This document shows, piece after piece, positions 9,401-39,024 of a DNA stretch of 39,024 nt. The notes under the pieces are model-generated. The model worked only from the letters and a program-made list of their open reading frames with translations. It was not told where the DNA came from and made no database searches. The stretch comes from Escherichia phage JSS1. Location: sequence record KX689784; one strand, given 5' to 3'. Numbering within the stretch: position 1 is the stretch's first letter; each line of letters opens with the position of its first letter. A program made the translations under genes and the position numbers.

Positions 9401-10315
9401 CTGAGCACCAATCCCGGCCTTGGCCTTCTCTTGGTCCAACTTCTGGTTCTCAAGCGCCAAGTTAATAAGCTCGGTCAGGTTCTGAGGGGAGCCACCAGTA
9501 ATGACCCCGTAATACTGAGGAAGAACTCCAGCGTTACGAATCTGGTCCAGCTCCTCACGAGACCACTTATGGTTGTTCCAGCGGGTCGGGTTGAACACAT
9601 CGCCAATGACATCAAGTGAGTCCTCGGTCTGACCAGCGCGGATAGCCACGCCGACCATAGAGTTCTTCACTTCAGATTCTGTAGCAGAACCAAAACCGAA
9701 CCACGTAGAGCGGTCCTCTCGTTCCTGCATGGTCTCGCCAGTAGACTTATAGAACATCTCACCGAACGATTCGTTGGGAGCTTCAGGTGCTTGACCCTCA
9801 ATGTTCAGACCAGCAGCGGTCGGAAGGTTCTCACCAAGAGCTACTTTAGGTTTAGCCTTGAGTCCTTCCGTGAGTGCGTCAAATACGTTAGCGCTTACTG
9901 GTGGAGTCTTTGGGCTAATGCCATTGAGTGCTCGTGCGACTCCCTTCTGATAGACTTCAGGGTCGTACCGGGAGCCTGTCTCATGGAAGCTGATAGCTTG
10001 AGCCAGAGAAGACAGGGTGTCAGGGTCCGATAGGTCGAGACTCTGGGTAGCTGGAATACCAGTTGCAGCCACCACTGAGTCAATATAAGCCTTAGTGTCG
10101 TTCTCGTTAGGAGGTGCCCATCGGTTGATAATCTTCTCGATGGAGTCATAACCTTGGCGACCGTAGGACAGCAGGTTTTTACCTAAAGCTCGGACGCCAG
10201 ACTCTGGACTATCGAATGTGACGAATGCGCCATCATCTCCAGTCATTCCTTCCCATTGGTCCTTACTTACCCGGATGTTACCCGGATTGTTATTGCGAAT
10301 ACCACGAGTCGCCAT
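6428..10315 (-). CDS. 16: Internal virion (core) protein D (T7 gp16 homolog) with a divergent N-terminal domain
   Basis: Extensive similarity to T7 gp16 from about residue 200 onward (STWFGFG, PTRWN, GAGVDPL, EARETARN, SPTGMQSGASGK, FLEARNLFDSD, ALSRSS). ATG at 10315 with AAGGAG RBS; the track start at 10333 is a TTG extension. The first ~120 aa (GIRNNNPGNIR...) differ from the T7 gp16 transglycosylase region. Confidence 0.9.
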   Translation of the reverse strand: MATRGIRNNNPGNIRVSKDQWEGMTGDDGAFVTFDSPESGVRALGKNLLSYGRQGYDSIEKIINRWAPPNENDTKAYIDSVVAATGIPATQSLDLSDPDTLSSLAQAISFHETGSRYDPEVYQKGVARALNGISPKTPPVSANVFDALTEGLKAKPKVALGENLPTAAGLNIEGQAPEAPNESFGEMFYKSTGETMQEREDRSTWFGFGSATESEVKNSMVGVAIRAGQTEDSLDVIGDVFNPTRWNNHKWSREELDQIRNAGVLPQYYGVITGGSPQNLTELINLALENQKLDQEKAKAGIGAQLAAGVIGAGVDPLTYVPIAGQVGKGGKLVNKMFTVAAQSGALAGVSEMARTSVAGGDAHVAEAILGGALFGGGMTAIADGLGRALGRNTNEFAGPATRLEARETARNVDGQDLSRLPIQEGEQTFSHQGVKFADVPNEPGSVRLEDGSILIGENLLNPKTRQVFDEVIEPERAAAGVNLGGLTEIGLKLLRSENPEIRGVAADLVRSPTGMQSGASGKIGTTASDVFERLRAVDHRFYNDIDDAVTEALKDPYFQTAFWRDSGAFRQDVYQRVSMAIEDGSGNLKAELTPGELKVYDLLKNQFDAKREMMENPAMFGRPDAQSIFPGSRFKGTYVPHVYSNQMKELYIKELGSPEALQEAIKKSWLTSYASRPEVKKRVDEALLESDPTLTPEGLAAAVDKYANDKAYGISHTEKFERSSVMEENINGLVGLENNSFLEARNLFDSDMSIVLPNGQTFSVNNLREWDMDKIVPAYNRRVNGDIAIMAGTGKTTKDMKDLVETMMNKAGDDGKLKGEVSTLRDTLKILTGRARRDGADDAAFATVMRTMTDLSFFAKNAYMGVQNLTEIGGMLARGNVRALLHGVPMFRDLAFRNKKVGASEIKDLHNVLFGKELDDSIRPSKQDVIDRLRSYSDLGRGTATALGTAKYYTGELAVRSPFTKVLNGTTNYLLDAGRQGFLSDIVEHSLTGSKRRFDDRWLKTAGISDEQWKGIKSLIRESVTRGPDGKYTIKDKKAFSQDPRAMDLWRMGDTIADETLLRPYKLSNMDAKAYGPIAKTVLQFKNFVIKSINGRTMRTFYNATKNNRAMDAALSTVMSMGLSGIYYMAQAHVKAYAMQDGRDREYLKQALDPTMIGYAALSRSSHLGGPLGVANILGGIAGYEDTKMLRSSILPRSPTEKPERAFTYGASTSDPVMNIVGNFLEQVPAFGYAANVGASAYNLAGYLKADTRVNERDYMTGMYNTFRELVPNDPITQKLLLGTFEEQGIHIKD

Positions 10316-26142: not shown

Positions 26143-27971
<1,829 letters not shown>

Positions 27972-28021
27972 TGGTCACTCCTTAATCATAAATGCGAACA
28001 AAGGGACAGGACTCATGGTCC

Positions 28022-28044
28022 CATCCCTAAGGTGATAGTTTAGT
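28022..28044 (-). promoter_or_regulatory. Variant phage promoter (class II-like; CACCTTAGG instead of CACTATAGG)
   Basis: Minus-strand CTAAACTATCACCTTAGGGATGG: the upstream half is consensus, two changes at -4/-3. Position matches T7 class II promoters before gene 4. Confidence 0.45.
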
Positions 28045-28255
28045 CTTTGAAGAACTGAGCCAACTGGTTAGCTTTGGTATCAGCCTGACGAGCCTTCATG
28101 CCAGCTTCCAGTGATGCGATGGTCAGCTTGTCAGCCAGAGCAGCAGCATCAGCCGCATCATCAGCAGTCTTCTTTTCTACCTTTCGTTCCAGAACCGCAG
28201 CACGACGATAACCACGCACCACCAGACGACCTAGAAATTCAATAAGTTTAATCAT
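28040..28255 (-). CDS. Hypothetical protein (71 aa), gene 3.7/3.8 position
   Basis: ATG at 28255 with AAGGAGA RBS; predicted helical, Ala/Lys-rich. Confidence 0.55.
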   Translation of the reverse strand: MIKLIEFLGRLVVRGYRRAAVLERKVEKKTADDAADAAALADKLTIASLEAGMKARQADTKANQLAQFFKD

Positions 28256-28279
28256 TAAGTTGTTCTCCTTTAGAGTTTA

Positions 28280-28738
28280 TTAACCACGGTCGGAAGTGAC
28301 CAGTTCGTTGGTAGTCAACCAGCGTTGCAAGTCAAAACTTGGACAGGCCTTAGGTGCTACGTCATGGTGTGCTTTGATTTCTGCCTGAGGATACAGGACC
28401 TTCAGGTCATCCAGCTTGATGCGCAGGGAGTCCATCTGGGCTGGAGTGAAGTTAGCTTCAAACTTGCCATTAGCGTTGATCCCACCTACAAGGCAGACGC
28501 CTACGGACCGGGAGTTCCAGTCCTTAACGTGTGACCCTACGACATTGACCGGGCGGCCTTCTTCCACAGTGCCATCACGCTTGATGACGAAGTGGTAGCC
28601 TACGTCCAGCCAGCCTTGCTGCTTGTGCCACATACGGATTGTCTCTACCCCGATGTCCATATCTGGCTTGGTAGCCGAACAGTGAACGAAGATAGCGTCA
28701 GTCCGTGACCGTGGGTTGAACTGAACCTTACTCACCAT
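28280..28738 (-). CDS. 3.5: Lysozyme / N-acetylmuramoyl-L-alanine amidase (T7 gp3.5 homolog, 152 aa)
   Basis: Near-colinear with T7 lysozyme (DAIFVHCSATKP, WLDVGYHF.IKRDGTVE.GR, GVCLVGGI, KACPSFDL, NELVTSDRG). Confidence 0.96.
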   Translation of the reverse strand: MVSKVQFNPRSRTDAIFVHCSATKPDMDIGVETIRMWHKQQGWLDVGYHFVIKRDGTVEEGRPVNVVGSHVKDWNSRSVGVCLVGGINANGKFEANFTPAQMDSLRIKLDDLKVLYPQAEIKAHHDVAPKACPSFDLQRWLTTNELVTSDRG

Positions 28739-29198
28739 CGTACACCACCAGCTCTACAGCTACGAGGTTCAGATGACGTTGGAAGCGCTGTGCGTCAGTC
28801 GTGTGCATCTGGAGCAACTTATGGTTGAAGACGTGAGAGTTGCTAATCTTCACGTACACTTCGTCAGGCTTACCGTGGACGATGAACGTCTGACCTACAC
28901 CGATCTTGTTGATGGTCAGGACTTCACGTTTAACTGTGACAGGAGGGACACTTGAGGCTGGCAGGACTTGCGGTTTATCCTCTAAGATTTCCTCAAGCTG
29001 ATTATTTATAACCCACGCTCCCCACATACCGTCAGGCTGAGTGTTATAACCTTCCGCTCCGTGTTTGTAGATTCCCCTCTCGGAGGATTCCACCAGAGTC
29101 ATTACAGGTGATGGTACAGGGTCTTTCGAACATTTCGTAACGATAGTGCCTGCTGGCCACCCGTTGAATCCAGTCTTAAGTCTATATTTCTGAGTCAT
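28728..29198 (-). CDS. Hypothetical protein (156 aa) inserted between endonuclease I and lysozyme
   Basis: ATG at 29198 in an ATGA overlap with the gene 3 stop, AGGAG 7 nt upstream. T7 has no gene here. No recognisable motif. Confidence 0.6.
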   Translation of the reverse strand: MTQKYRLKTGFNGWPAGTIVTKCSKDPVPSPVMTLVESSERGIYKHGAEGYNTQPDGMWGAWVINNQLEEILEDKPQVLPASSVPPVTVKREVLTINKIGVGQTFIVHGKPDEVYVKISNSHVFNHKLLQMHTTDAQRFQRHLNLVAVELVVYDGE

Positions 29199-29647
29199 CA
29201 CTTAACTCCTTTCTTCTTGGGGATGAGTATACCAGAAGGCAGACGTACAGTCGCCTCTCTCAGCCACTCAACCGGGATAAACTTGTCGGCAAACTTAAAG
29301 CCGTTCTTTTCGCACCATGCGCCATACGTGGTCGGAGACCCTTTGTATAACTTGGAGCGGGAACTTGAGAACACGAACCGAATGTCTAACTCTGGGTGCT
29401 GTTCTCTAATCAATAGGTGCTTCTTGCGGTCTTCCACTGCGAAGATTCCTTTGGTCTCCACAATTATTCCGTTGGGCAGTACAAAGTCTGGACAATAACT
29501 GTGAAGAGATTCTGGTATTGTGTACTTGATGCTATACATCTCGTACTCAGCCTTAACTCCGTTCTTCTCCAGCCACTCTTGGTTCTTTGCTTCTAGTCCA
29601 GACCTATATATTCCTACTTGATGCCCTCGGCTAATCGTTCTTGCCAT
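29198..29647 (-). CDS. 3: Endonuclease I, Holliday junction resolvase (T7 gp3 homolog, 149 aa)
   Basis: PDF.LPNGI.VETKG...DRKKHLLIREQHPELDIR.VFSSSR.KLYKGSPT.YG matches T7 gp3. ATG at 29647 with GGAGACG RBS; the track start at 29698 is a TTG extension. Confidence 0.93.
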   Translation of the reverse strand: MARTISRGHQVGIYRSGLEAKNQEWLEKNGVKAEYEMYSIKYTIPESLHSYCPDFVLPNGIIVETKGIFAVEDRKKHLLIREQHPELDIRFVFSSSRSKLYKGSPTTYGAWCEKNGFKFADKFIPVEWLREATVRLPSGILIPKKKGVK

Positions 29648-30080
29648 TCTTGCGTCTCCAATTAATAGCTTGCGGAGTAACGCCAAACATCTTAGCAAGT
29701 TCTATAGGCCTCAGCTTGGACTTCAGGATAAACGCTACGTCTTCCTCGGTCAGCTTAGTCTTGTGATTAGCTTCTCCTTCGAATACTGGCGGTTTCGAGT
29801 GACGTCCCCGCTTCACGCAGTCCTGCATGTTGTCCTTCTGAGTCCCAACTTCAAGGTGCTCAGGGTTACAGCAGCAAGGGTTATCACATTTATGTCTAAC
29901 AACCAATCCATCAGGTATATGACCTTTGTACTCCCTGTACGAAACTCGGTGAGAATAGTCCTGTTTCTGATGACCTATAGCTATTTGACCATAACCAGTT
30001 TTAGTCCGGGAGCGTTGCCACTCCCAGCATCCCGAAGGAGAAACCTTAGAGTAAGCCTCCAGTTTCTCTTTCAGCGTCAT
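29631..30080 (-). CDS. HNH endonuclease (149 aa) inserted between SSB and endonuclease I
   Basis: HNH signature CWEW...GYGQ...HR.SY...GHIP.GLVVRHKCDNPCCCNPEHLEVGT. ATG 3 nt after the gene 2.5 stop (TAAATG), with no strong RBS of its own. Confidence 0.8.
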   Translation of the reverse strand: MTLKEKLEAYSKVSPSGCWEWQRSRTKTGYGQIAIGHQKQDYSHRVSYREYKGHIPDGLVVRHKCDNPCCCNPEHLEVGTQKDNMQDCVKRGRHSKPPVFEGEANHKTKLTEEDVAFILKSKLRPIELAKMFGVTPQAINWRRKNGKND

Positions 30081-30776
30081 TTAGAAGTCGTAGTCTCCTG
30101 CAGTATCTTCATCACCACCTTCGGAACCATCGTCGCCGAAGTCATCAGACCCGAAGTCACCATCGGTTGGCGCTTTGTAGCCAGTACCGAGGTCTTCATC
30201 ATCACCCCAGCCACCATCGCCACCAGCACCATCACCTTTCCACTCCTTCAGTTCTACCATAAGGCAGGACTCAAGCTGGAGCTTAATGCTTGCACCAGTC
30301 GCAGCGTTCCACTTGAACGGCAGGACTTTAAACTTGACCTTCAGCTTAGACCCTGAGCCAATATTCGGGACGTCACGGATGAGTTTAGCATCGGTGTCGT
30401 AGAACCGTAATACGATAGGCTCGGACTTGCCGTCTTTCAGGTAAGACGCGAAGCATTTAAACTTCAGGGTAACAGTACCGTCACCATTCTCAATCCACGG
30501 CATGTCGCCTTCTCGTGGTTCAATAGGCTTCTTGCCACGCTGAACCTGAGGCGGGTTCTTCTCGTGGTCTGCGAGTGCTTTCGCATATGCATCGTCGTGA
30601 ATCTTCTGTAAGACATCAATCATCTTACGGACCTTCGGGTTGCTCAGGTCGAATGTCAGGTTGACTTTATGTTCACCACGCTCGTTGAACTTGGTGTCTG
30701 CTTTGTTCAGCCATGCGTAAGGCTCAACGATACCAGCTACCGGAGTGGTGAAAGTCTTCAGTTGCTCTTTAGCCAT
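30081..30776 (-). CDS. 2.5: Single-stranded DNA-binding protein (T7 gp2.5 homolog, 231 aa)
   Basis: MAK...A.PYAW, NPP...RGKKP, GDMP...NGDGT, KLQLES and an acidic C-terminal tail ending DF as in T7 gp2.5. Confidence 0.95.
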   Translation of the reverse strand: MAKEQLKTFTTPVAGIVEPYAWLNKADTKFNERGEHKVNLTFDLSNPKVRKMIDVLQKIHDDAYAKALADHEKNPPQVQRGKKPIEPREGDMPWIENGDGTVTLKFKCFASYLKDGKSEPIVLRFYDTDAKLIRDVPNIGSGSKLKVKFKVLPFKWNAATGASIKLQLESCLMVELKEWKGDGAGGDGGWGDDEDLGTGYKAPTDGDFGSDDFGDDGSEGGDEDTAGDYDF

Positions 30777-30815
30777 TGGTGTAAATCTCCTAATTTAAAG
30801 TTACGAACTGGACGT

Positions 30816-30838
30816 CTGTCCTACAGTGATAGTTTAAG
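30816..30838 (-). promoter_or_regulatory. Variant phage promoter (phi2.5-like; CACTGTAGG)
   Basis: Minus-strand CTTAAACTATCACTGTAGGACAG: one change at -3. Overlaps the gene 2 stop, upstream of gene 2.5. Confidence 0.5.
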
Positions 30839-30992
30839 TCTCAGGACGAATCCGTCCTACCACAAACCCAGCGTCCTCATACTCTTGGGACTTCAGGGTA
30901 GCCTCTTCAAGAGACTTTGCGTACACCGGAACCTCGAAGGACTGAACTCGACCCTCAAGCTCCACGATGTATTTCTTCTCAACCTCAGTCAT
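30834..30992 (-). CDS. 2: Host RNA polymerase inhibitor (T7 gp2 homolog, 52 aa)
   Basis: [14 protein letters not shown]...[10 protein letters not shown] resembles T7 gp2 (SFEVPIYAETLDEA...AGFEVTRVRP). ATG at 30992 with GGAAGGAG RBS. Below the ORF-track size cutoff. Confidence 0.7.
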
Positions 30993-31070
30993 AAACCACG
31001 CTCCTTCCATTGGTTGTATAGTGTAATGTAGTCCGGGTTGAGAGTCTTCTCATACATCTCCCGGCACCAC

Positions 31071-31511
31071 TCACTCGGCAACATAGCACTTACCTTTATG
31101 CAGGTCGAACAGCTCCTGATAGAAGGCCGCTTTGTTCAGGTCCTTCTCCATAGTTGCCAGCTCTGACTTCTTACCAGCCCGGAGTCGATACTTCAGGACG
31201 TTACCCATGCAGAACCCACGGAACTCACTCACAGTCATTGACCGTGCGATAATCTCAATGGATTCCACGCCGTCAAAGACCTGATAGTGAGATGGCTTGC
31301 GAACGCCATCGTCTTCACTGCACGTTCCCACAGAGGCCCGTAAGTCACGAAGGGTCTTGTACTCGCCAGTACCTGTCCTCTTACCGACCATTGGGCATCG
31401 GTCACATGATAGTCCCTTGCAGCTCACCCCATTACCGCAGCTAGCTTCGTCTCTTACGTCAACGTTAAGTGCCAAAAGTTCTTTGACAACAGTTGGTGTA
31501 CGGTTAAGCAT
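31071..31511 (-). CDS. 1.7: gp1.7-like protein with DUF3310-type C-terminal domain (146 aa)
   Basis: C-terminal motif FRGFCMGNVLKYRLRAGKK...DL.KAAFY is typical of the DUF3310 family found in T7 gp1.7 nucleotide kinase. AAGGAGGTGG RBS. Confidence 0.65.
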   Translation of the reverse strand: MLNRTPTVVKELLALNVDVRDEASCGNGVSCKGLSCDRCPMVGKRTGTGEYKTLRDLRASVGTCSEDDGVRKPSHYQVFDGVESIEIIARSMTVSEFRGFCMGNVLKYRLRAGKKSELATMEKDLNKAAFYQELFDLHKGKCYVAE

Positions 31512-38849: not shown

Positions 38850-39024
38850 ACTGTAGGTCTCTGACTGTGGGTGTTGGTGTCTTATGGTTGTGACTGTAGG
38901 TTAGTTAGACTGTAGGTACAGCAGGAGTCAATGACTGTAGGTAGTGAGACTGTAGGTTGTAGGACCTATGGTTGTGACTGTAGGTCGGTGAGACTGTAGG
39001 TTGTAGGACTTATGGTTGTTGAGA
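38850..39024. repeat. Array of (GA)CTGTAGGT short direct repeats with a nested ~44 bp higher-order repeat
   Basis: At least 8 copies of CTGTAGGT (one CTGTGGGT) at 14-28 bp spacing. GAGACTGTAGGTTGTAGGAC(C/T)TATGGTTGT occurs at 38946 and 38990. Same motif family as at window positions 236-276. Confidence 0.7.

Follow-up and report, generated by a model that had tools for sequence, protein, structure and literature searches.

Gene 3.2 of K1F-like phages: a clade-wide hypothetical protein with a conserved core and exchangeable N-terminal domains

The genome of Escherichia phage JSS1 (KX689784; "the window" below means this whole stretch of 39,024 nucleotides) holds a 156-codon reading frame between gene 3, which encodes endonuclease I, and gene 3.5, which encodes the lysozyme. 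Is this gene an unusual inserted accessory element, as a sequence-only reading of the window had proposed, or does it belong to an inherited family, and what could its product do? Kayfunavirus (K1F-like) phages are widely isolated, and they are engineered as therapeutic agents directed at capsulated E. coli, Salmonella Typhi, Citrobacter and Enterobacter. The gene, named 3.2 in these phages, is one of the few clade-wide Kayfunavirus genes without an assigned function.

Reading frame and transcription unit of gene 3.2

According to the open reading frame list and the sequence, gene 3.2 occupies 28728-29198 on the minus strand (156 codons followed by TAA) and encodes a protein of 17.5 kDa. Its ATG lies at 29198-29196 and is preceded, across a 7-nt spacer, by the Shine-Dalgarno sequence AAGGAG (29206-29211, minus strand), read from the sequence inside the 3′ end of gene 3. 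The ribosome-binding site AGGAG assigned earlier is thereby confirmed. Gene 3 (29198-29647, minus strand) ends with a TGA at 29200-29198 that shares one base with the gene 3.2 ATG, and the junction reads TGATG. The ATGA overlap described earlier is incorrect for this genome; a 4-nt overlap between the gene 3 stop and the gene 3.2 start is the form found in K1F, EcoDS1 and LET1. With the alternative start GTG at 29201, which is in frame, the overlap would read GTGA. The ATG was preferred because gp3.2 homologues begin with MTQK. At the other end, the TAA (28730-28728) lies inside gene 3.5 (N-acetylmuramoyl-L-alanine amidase/lysozyme, 28280-28738, minus strand), the ATG of which is at 28738. This downstream overlap measures 11 nt (28728-28738, minus strand; ORF list and sequence) and agrees with the earlier statement that the frame runs into the lysozyme start. 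Two plus-strand ORFs of 60 and 31 amino acids over the gene 3.2 region were rejected as antisense chance ORFs.

Every gene in the gene 2.5-to-4 region is on the minus strand, the window being the reverse complement of the Escherichia phage PE3-1 record. An 18-nt repeat occurs in 11 copies between 750 and 36959 of the window (TCCTATAGTGATAGTTTA on the plus strand, TAAACTATCACTATAGGA on the coding strand). This repeat is the phage RNA polymerase promoter family and sets the transcription units. The nearest copy upstream of gene 3.2 (TAAACTATCACTGTAGGA, 30819-30836, minus strand, repeat family D1) stands 5′ of gene 2.5, which encodes the single-strand-binding protein gp2.5 (30081-30776, minus strand). 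The next one (28025-28042, minus strand, family D1) stands 5′ of gene 4 (26143-27843, minus strand), beyond gene 3.7 (28040-28255, minus strand), and ends the 2.5-HNH-3-3.2-3.5-3.7 unit. No promoter copy of the 11-copy repeat family was found between these two sites, so genes 2.5 to 3.7 form one unit. Searches for sigma-70-like sites and for minus-strand terminator-like sites in the gene 3.2 region gave none, and the sole terminator-like match in the region was on the plus strand (antisense), inside gene 3. Rfam gave no match in 27800-31200. Gene 3.2 belongs to the middle (class II) genes, is transcribed together with genes 3 and 3.5 and is coupled to both in translation; the coupling into the 3 to 3.5 block that had been proposed for it is borne out by the overlaps with both neighbours and by the shared class II unit.

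Two further features of the window were recorded. A 149-aa homing-endonuclease ORF of the HNH_3 family (29631-30080, minus strand; PF13392, residues 42-86, E = 7.8e-15) lies between genes 2.5 and 3 and shares bases with the start of the latter. K1F, SH3, Dev2 and further relatives lack this ORF, and the RefSeq record of PE3-1 annotates only its last 65 codons (record 10007-10204), leaving out the HNH_3 match. Salmonella phage STP-SP6 has a related HNH gene between genes 3.2 and 3.5 (locus L003, 2763-3212). At 38883-39019 of the window, short direct repeats with many GACTGTAGGT stretches (families D7 and D11) form a cluster, which is probably part of the terminal-repeat or concatemer-junction region.

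Distribution of the family and the gene 3/gene 3.5 junction

The protein gp3.2 is 100% identical to its counterpart in PE3-1 (Kayfunavirus, Studiervirinae; KJ748011/NC_024379), PE3_019 or YP_009044267.1, which is already labelled gp3.2 in RefSeq. The gene is thus the PE3-1 orthologue of K1F gene 3.2. In profile searches it matched PHROG 16385 over residues 1-156 (E = 4.1e-96) and PHROG 15211 over residues 87-156 only (E = 1.3e-40); both are families of unknown function, and no other PHROG family was matched. The segment shared with PHROG 15211 is hereafter called the core.

Using tblastn, a core homologue was detected in 219 phage records, while 217 records carry genes 3 and 3.5 at 80% or higher nucleotide identity, and the near equality of the two counts indicates that gene 3.2 is near-universal in the clade. 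The core is a near-universal gene of Kayfunavirus, of Caroctavirus CR8 (where the homologue is gene 3.01) and of some Providencia T7-like phages. The Providencia phages form a distant subfamily with 35-45% core identity, and there too the gene lies directly 3′ of endonuclease I. Outside these groups the family is scarce: a profile search of 1.84 billion representative proteins returned only 18 clusters, one of them spurious. The spurious cluster, P0134, is a FAZ1 repeat protein of 1872 aa that was matched through the linker, and it was rejected as a homologue.

The view of this gene as an unusual inserted accessory gene is not supported by these counts, since the same gene is gp3.2 of K1F, EcoDS1 and Dev2 and 3.01 of CR44b and is present in 219 records. 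That a homology search might reveal a common conserved hypothetical protein of the phage subgroup had been named as the outcome that would overturn the accessory reading, and this is what was found (219 against 217 records; PHROG 16385 and 15211). Gene 3.2 is a known, catalogued, clade-wide hypothetical protein. The term accessory element can be kept for the N-terminal half of the product alone; the core is clade-wide.

The position of the gene is as constant as its presence. A Phage_endo_I gene directly precedes the gene 3.2 homologue in every locus examined, and in all 39 of the 39 gp3.2-carrying loci, the distant Providencia subfamily included, gene 3.2 starts at the gene 3 stop. Of the 39 loci, 38 have a readable 3.5 gene, and 31 of these show the 11-nt overlap with it. 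In the remaining eight loci an HNH gene or a 118-aa ORF is inserted after gene 3.2, or the contig ends before gene 3.5; among loci with a readable gene 3.5, the overlap is lost only where another gene has been inserted. The 118-aa ORF occurs in Providencia-type T7-like contigs (locus L009, 6456-6812), has no Pfam match and lies between the gp3.2 homologue and the amidase.

One exception was seen among the Kayfunavirus genomes, Escherichia phage ZG49 (NC_047777), which lacks gene 3.2. Between its full genes 3 and 3.5 (locus L015, 851-2234) lie part of the gp3.5 N-terminus and another copy of the gp3 C-terminus, an arrangement that is either a rearrangement or an assembly artefact. The absence of the gene from ZG49 means that gene 3.2 may be dispensable.

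The gene 3 to 3.5 stretch was used as the query in a survey of the junction in other T7-like phages. The gene 3 match directly adjoins the gene 3.5 match in T7, T3, K30 and most other Studiervirinae, and likewise in the many relatives from Klebsiella, Yersinia and Pseudomonas. Query positions 195-1419 correspond to 759 bp in the T7 record, about 466 nt being missing, and the position is indeed empty in T7 as had been stated. Yersinia phage Rambo, phiA1122 and Klebsiella phage KpV766 have an insertion of another kind at this site, about 430 nt long and encoding an HNH protein or "protein 3.3". The survey suggested earlier, of which T7-like genomes carry the gene and what replaces it elsewhere, gave this picture: 219 records carry the core, and at other junctions the site is empty or holds an HNH gene or "protein 3.3". 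The occurrence of gene 3.2 itself is not sporadic.

Predicted fold, exchangeable modules and selection

Structure prediction suggests that gp3.2 consists of two small SH3-like beta-barrels with a flexible linker, rich in Pro and Ser, between them. Residues 1-72 (28983-29198, minus strand) form the N-terminal domain, a predicted SH3-like barrel that we call type A, with the signature GWPxGTIVTKC ... QPDGMWGAWV. The linker, residues 73-86 (EDKPQVLPASSVPP; 28941-28982, minus strand), was delimited by alignments and has a pLDDT below 50; it is common to several N-domain types and absent from core-only proteins. Residues 87-156 (28731-28940, minus strand) are the C-terminal core, predicted to be a second small SH3-like barrel. 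Its motif Y..SNSH.F....QMH.T...RF, here VYVKISNSHVFNHKLLQMHTTDAQRF, is invariant across the Kayfunavirus, CR8 and Providencia subfamilies, and comprises Y115, S119-N120-S121-H122, F124, Q130-M131-H132, T134 and R138-F139. When AF2 was run on the full-length protein the C-domain had a pLDDT below 50; a rerun with sequences of the distant subfamily gave a confident C-domain fold. Each half is predicted to be a barrel built from five to six short strands. The predicted N-domain superposes on canonical SH3 domains at 1.3-2.0 Å over 47-52 residues and has the five strands of an SH3 barrel, and W14, H46, W59 and W62 are conserved. Structure-based comparison, recommended in the sequence-only reading, thus produced an SH3-like fold for both halves, and no characterised relative by fold. 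An origin of the two barrels by internal duplication was rejected (N-barrel against C-barrel profile, hhalign probability <0.1%).

Alignments distinguished at least six N-terminal domains, unrelated to one another, that lie between the gene 3 stop and the core and are joined to the latter in frame. Type A is carried by PE3-1, K1F, EcoDS1, CR44b and LET1, type B by Salmonella phage STP-SP6 and Enterobacter phage MII_002, and type C by CR8; three further types come from metagenomic and IMG/VR sequences. SH3, Dev2, SFP20 and about half of all records have no N-domain and encode proteins of 74-76 aa. The core is therefore sufficient alone in about half of the relatives. When PE3-1 is compared with its relatives at the nucleotide level, homology ends precisely at the gene 3 stop and resumes at residue ~72 in linker-sharing types or at residue ~93 in core-only proteins, and breakpoints this sharp indicate that the N-domain is a discrete cassette. 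In the 226-227-aa metagenomic forms (P0105, P0080, P0091, P0110) a type-A barrel is followed by a middle domain and then by the core. The same middle domain is the sole N-domain in P0126, P0129 and L024-L026, which shows that the modules are stackable as well as swappable. N-domain types were always fused in frame to the core and never found as separate ORFs, and they did not correlate with host genus.

The two halves of the protein differ in their rates of change. Over the C-terminal 70 codons, pairwise dN/dS was 0.03-0.44, mostly 0.1-0.2, at dS of 0.3-1.9; values of 0.02-0.25 at dS of 0.3-1.5 were also obtained for the core. Low values at diverged synonymous sites indicate that the amino-acid sequence, and not the DNA, is under selection, and the open reading frame at 28728-29198 on the minus strand, earlier judged well supported, is accordingly upheld. 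A role of the core as a cis element (promoter or RNA) was rejected, since synonymous sites have diverged and the gene contains no promoter copy, terminator or Rfam match. Among type A sequences, dN was 0.13-0.42 in the N-domain and 0.006-0.086 in the core, and N-domains of the PE3-1 type evolve 4-5 times faster than the core does. Omega, in the four pairs without saturation, was 0.36-0.69 for the N-domain and 0.02-0.34 for the core, with the N-domain higher in each. Synonymous sites of the N-domain were saturated where core dS was about 0.75, which points to independent exchange. Most of the variable N-domain positions are in predicted loops, where mean entropy is 1.40, compared with 0.73 in strands, and the scaffold GWPxGTIVTKC ... 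GMWGAWV is invariant. Between PE3-1 and SH3 the core tracks gene 3.5 (92% nucleotide identity) and not gene 3 (85%), indicating a recombination break between gene 3 and the core.

These values bear on the simplest explanation, that gene 3.2 is a coupling spacer or regulatory ORF for gene 3.5, or a decaying remnant, and that its product is functionless. The gene does overlap both neighbours, T7 manages without it and so does ZG49. Against this, the core keeps a dN/dS of about 0.1 despite many synonymous changes, confident folds are predicted for both halves, and the gene has been kept in about 219 genomes and, at 35-40% identity, in a distant subfamily. The dN/dS values largely refute a functionless product, and we regard it as very improbable.

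Possible roles and comparison with known systems

Sequence comparison gave no direct lead to a function. Searches with the protein or its profile gave no match in Pfam at E ≤ 1 (SH3, KOW, Tudor and FeoA families included), among PDB sequences at E ≤ 10, in NCBIfam, or among the PADLOC defence-protein profiles, and the statement that the protein has no recognisable motif held in all four. No characterised relative was found by sequence or fold. In the literature searched, gp3.2 is listed only in gene tables, with no described function, and the layout of a core with exchangeable cassettes is not described there.

The protein most likely acts by binding, because no catalytic motif is present. We tentatively favour a model in which gp3.2 would be a non-enzymatic binding or adaptor protein, the core docking on, or oligomerising around, a conserved partner during the DNA-metabolism phase. 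Candidate partners would be the phage endonuclease I, the lysozyme/RNA polymerase or a conserved host protein. The N-barrel would add a variable, strain-dependent specificity through its fast-evolving loops, directed for example at a host factor or a defence component. This model is favoured because the modules are always fused to the core: unrelated modules that are repeatedly joined to the same core and never occur separately probably need it, for docking, localisation or oligomerisation. The choice of endonuclease I as the partner is suggested by adjacency and coupling, and the recombination break between gene 3 and the core weakens it. Other considerations, too, stand against the adaptor model. 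T7 and T3 endonuclease I work without any gp3.2; ZG49 lacks the gene, which may therefore be dispensable; the adjacency of gene 3.2 to gene 3 may be inherited gene order; and SH3-like, KOW and Tudor folds bind nucleic acids too.

The last of these leads to another account, in which gp3.2 binds DNA or RNA through one or both barrels, as Sso7d, KOW and Tudor domains or the integrase C-terminal domain do, and either modulates, jointly with endonuclease I, how branched or replicating DNA is processed or acts on the class II mRNA. In its favour, the C-domain has a mildly basic pI of 8.3 and conserved K, R and H residues, and the gene is located among DNA-metabolism genes, directly 3′ of the junction resolvase gene. 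However, the whole protein is neutral (pI 7.0) and its N-barrel acidic (pI 6.5), and the exchange of unrelated N-domains is more typical of diversification towards protein targets than of DNA binding. We consider a nucleic-acid binder rather improbable.

Alternatively, gp3.2 might be a stand-alone inhibitor for host takeover or counter-defence with no tie to the phage machinery. Its core would then neutralise a conserved enterobacterial protein, as T7 gp2, gp5.5 and gp5.7 do, and the N-cassettes would be independent add-on inhibitors merely using the same expression slot. Several properties fit: small size, no enzyme motif, expression from the early-middle region, restriction to the clade (only 18 clusters among 1.84 billion representatives), N-domains with the cassette diversity of accessory regions and elevated omega, and a gene 3/3.5 junction that, in other T7-like phages (phiA1122, Rambo, KpV766), is a hot spot for insertions. 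Against this reading stand the in-frame fusion of all N-domain types to the core, which argues for functional dependence on it, and the independence of N-domain type from host genus. The gp3.2 sequence is also absent from the supplementary files of two accessory-gene screens, where the family may never have been tested. An inhibitor of this kind is an unlikely reading, with about one chance in its favour for every few against.

Returning to the adaptor model, a stronger version of it would make gp3.2 a modular targeting platform, with a conserved docking barrel that tethers interchangeable, fast-evolving recognition barrels to the DNA-processing machinery of the phage or to a conserved host hub. 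We hold this to be doubtful. If it were true, the cassette slot between gene 3 and the core would be an unrecognised hot spot of host specificity or counter-defence in K1F-like therapeutic phages. In any case, the core and cassette layout marks a defined genome site at which K1F-like phages diversify. Should the cassette set strain-specific infection success, the site would be relevant to host-range engineering; otherwise gene 3.2 is an ordinary conserved hypothetical gene. The domain-cassette architecture is a useful but modest addition to a known family.

Among known systems, the HNH genes of phiA1122, Rambo and KpV766 occupy the same junction as gene 3.2. They differ from gp3.2, which has no HNH or nuclease motif in Pfam and whose core is passed on throughout the clade, without a scattered distribution; the neighbouring ORF at 29631-30080 did match HNH_3 in a Pfam search of this type. 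The predicted fold of both halves resembles the SH3-like superfold as seen in eukaryotic SH3 domains, the Hpy99I barrel, the FeoA/DtxR C-domain, KOW/L2/EF-P and Tudor domains. Canonical SH3 domains bind proline-rich peptides through a conserved aromatic groove; gp3.2 has the conserved residues W14, H46, W59 and W62 and a Pro-rich linker. It has no sequence-profile membership in the SH3, KOW, Tudor and FeoA families, and their ligand-binding motifs were not found where this could be tested. Closer are gp3.2 of Cronobacter phage Dev2 and gp19 of Citrobacter phage SH3 (74 aa; PHROG 15211), with cores 71-86% identical and with the position and the 11-nt overlap with gene 3.5 seen in PE3-1. Both proteins lack the N-terminal barrel and the linker, which makes the core a self-sufficient unit. 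Closest are the orthologues K1F gp3.2 (CAJ29361), EcoDS1 gp3.2 and CR44b gene 3.01, with 72-85% amino acid identity over the full length (K1F 72%) and the same position between genes 3 and 3.5 and two-domain layout as PE3-1. The PE3-1 gene differs from those of K1F, EcoDS1 and LET1 in its 1-nt TGATG overlap, as against 4 nt, and in its N-domain loops, and in nothing essential.
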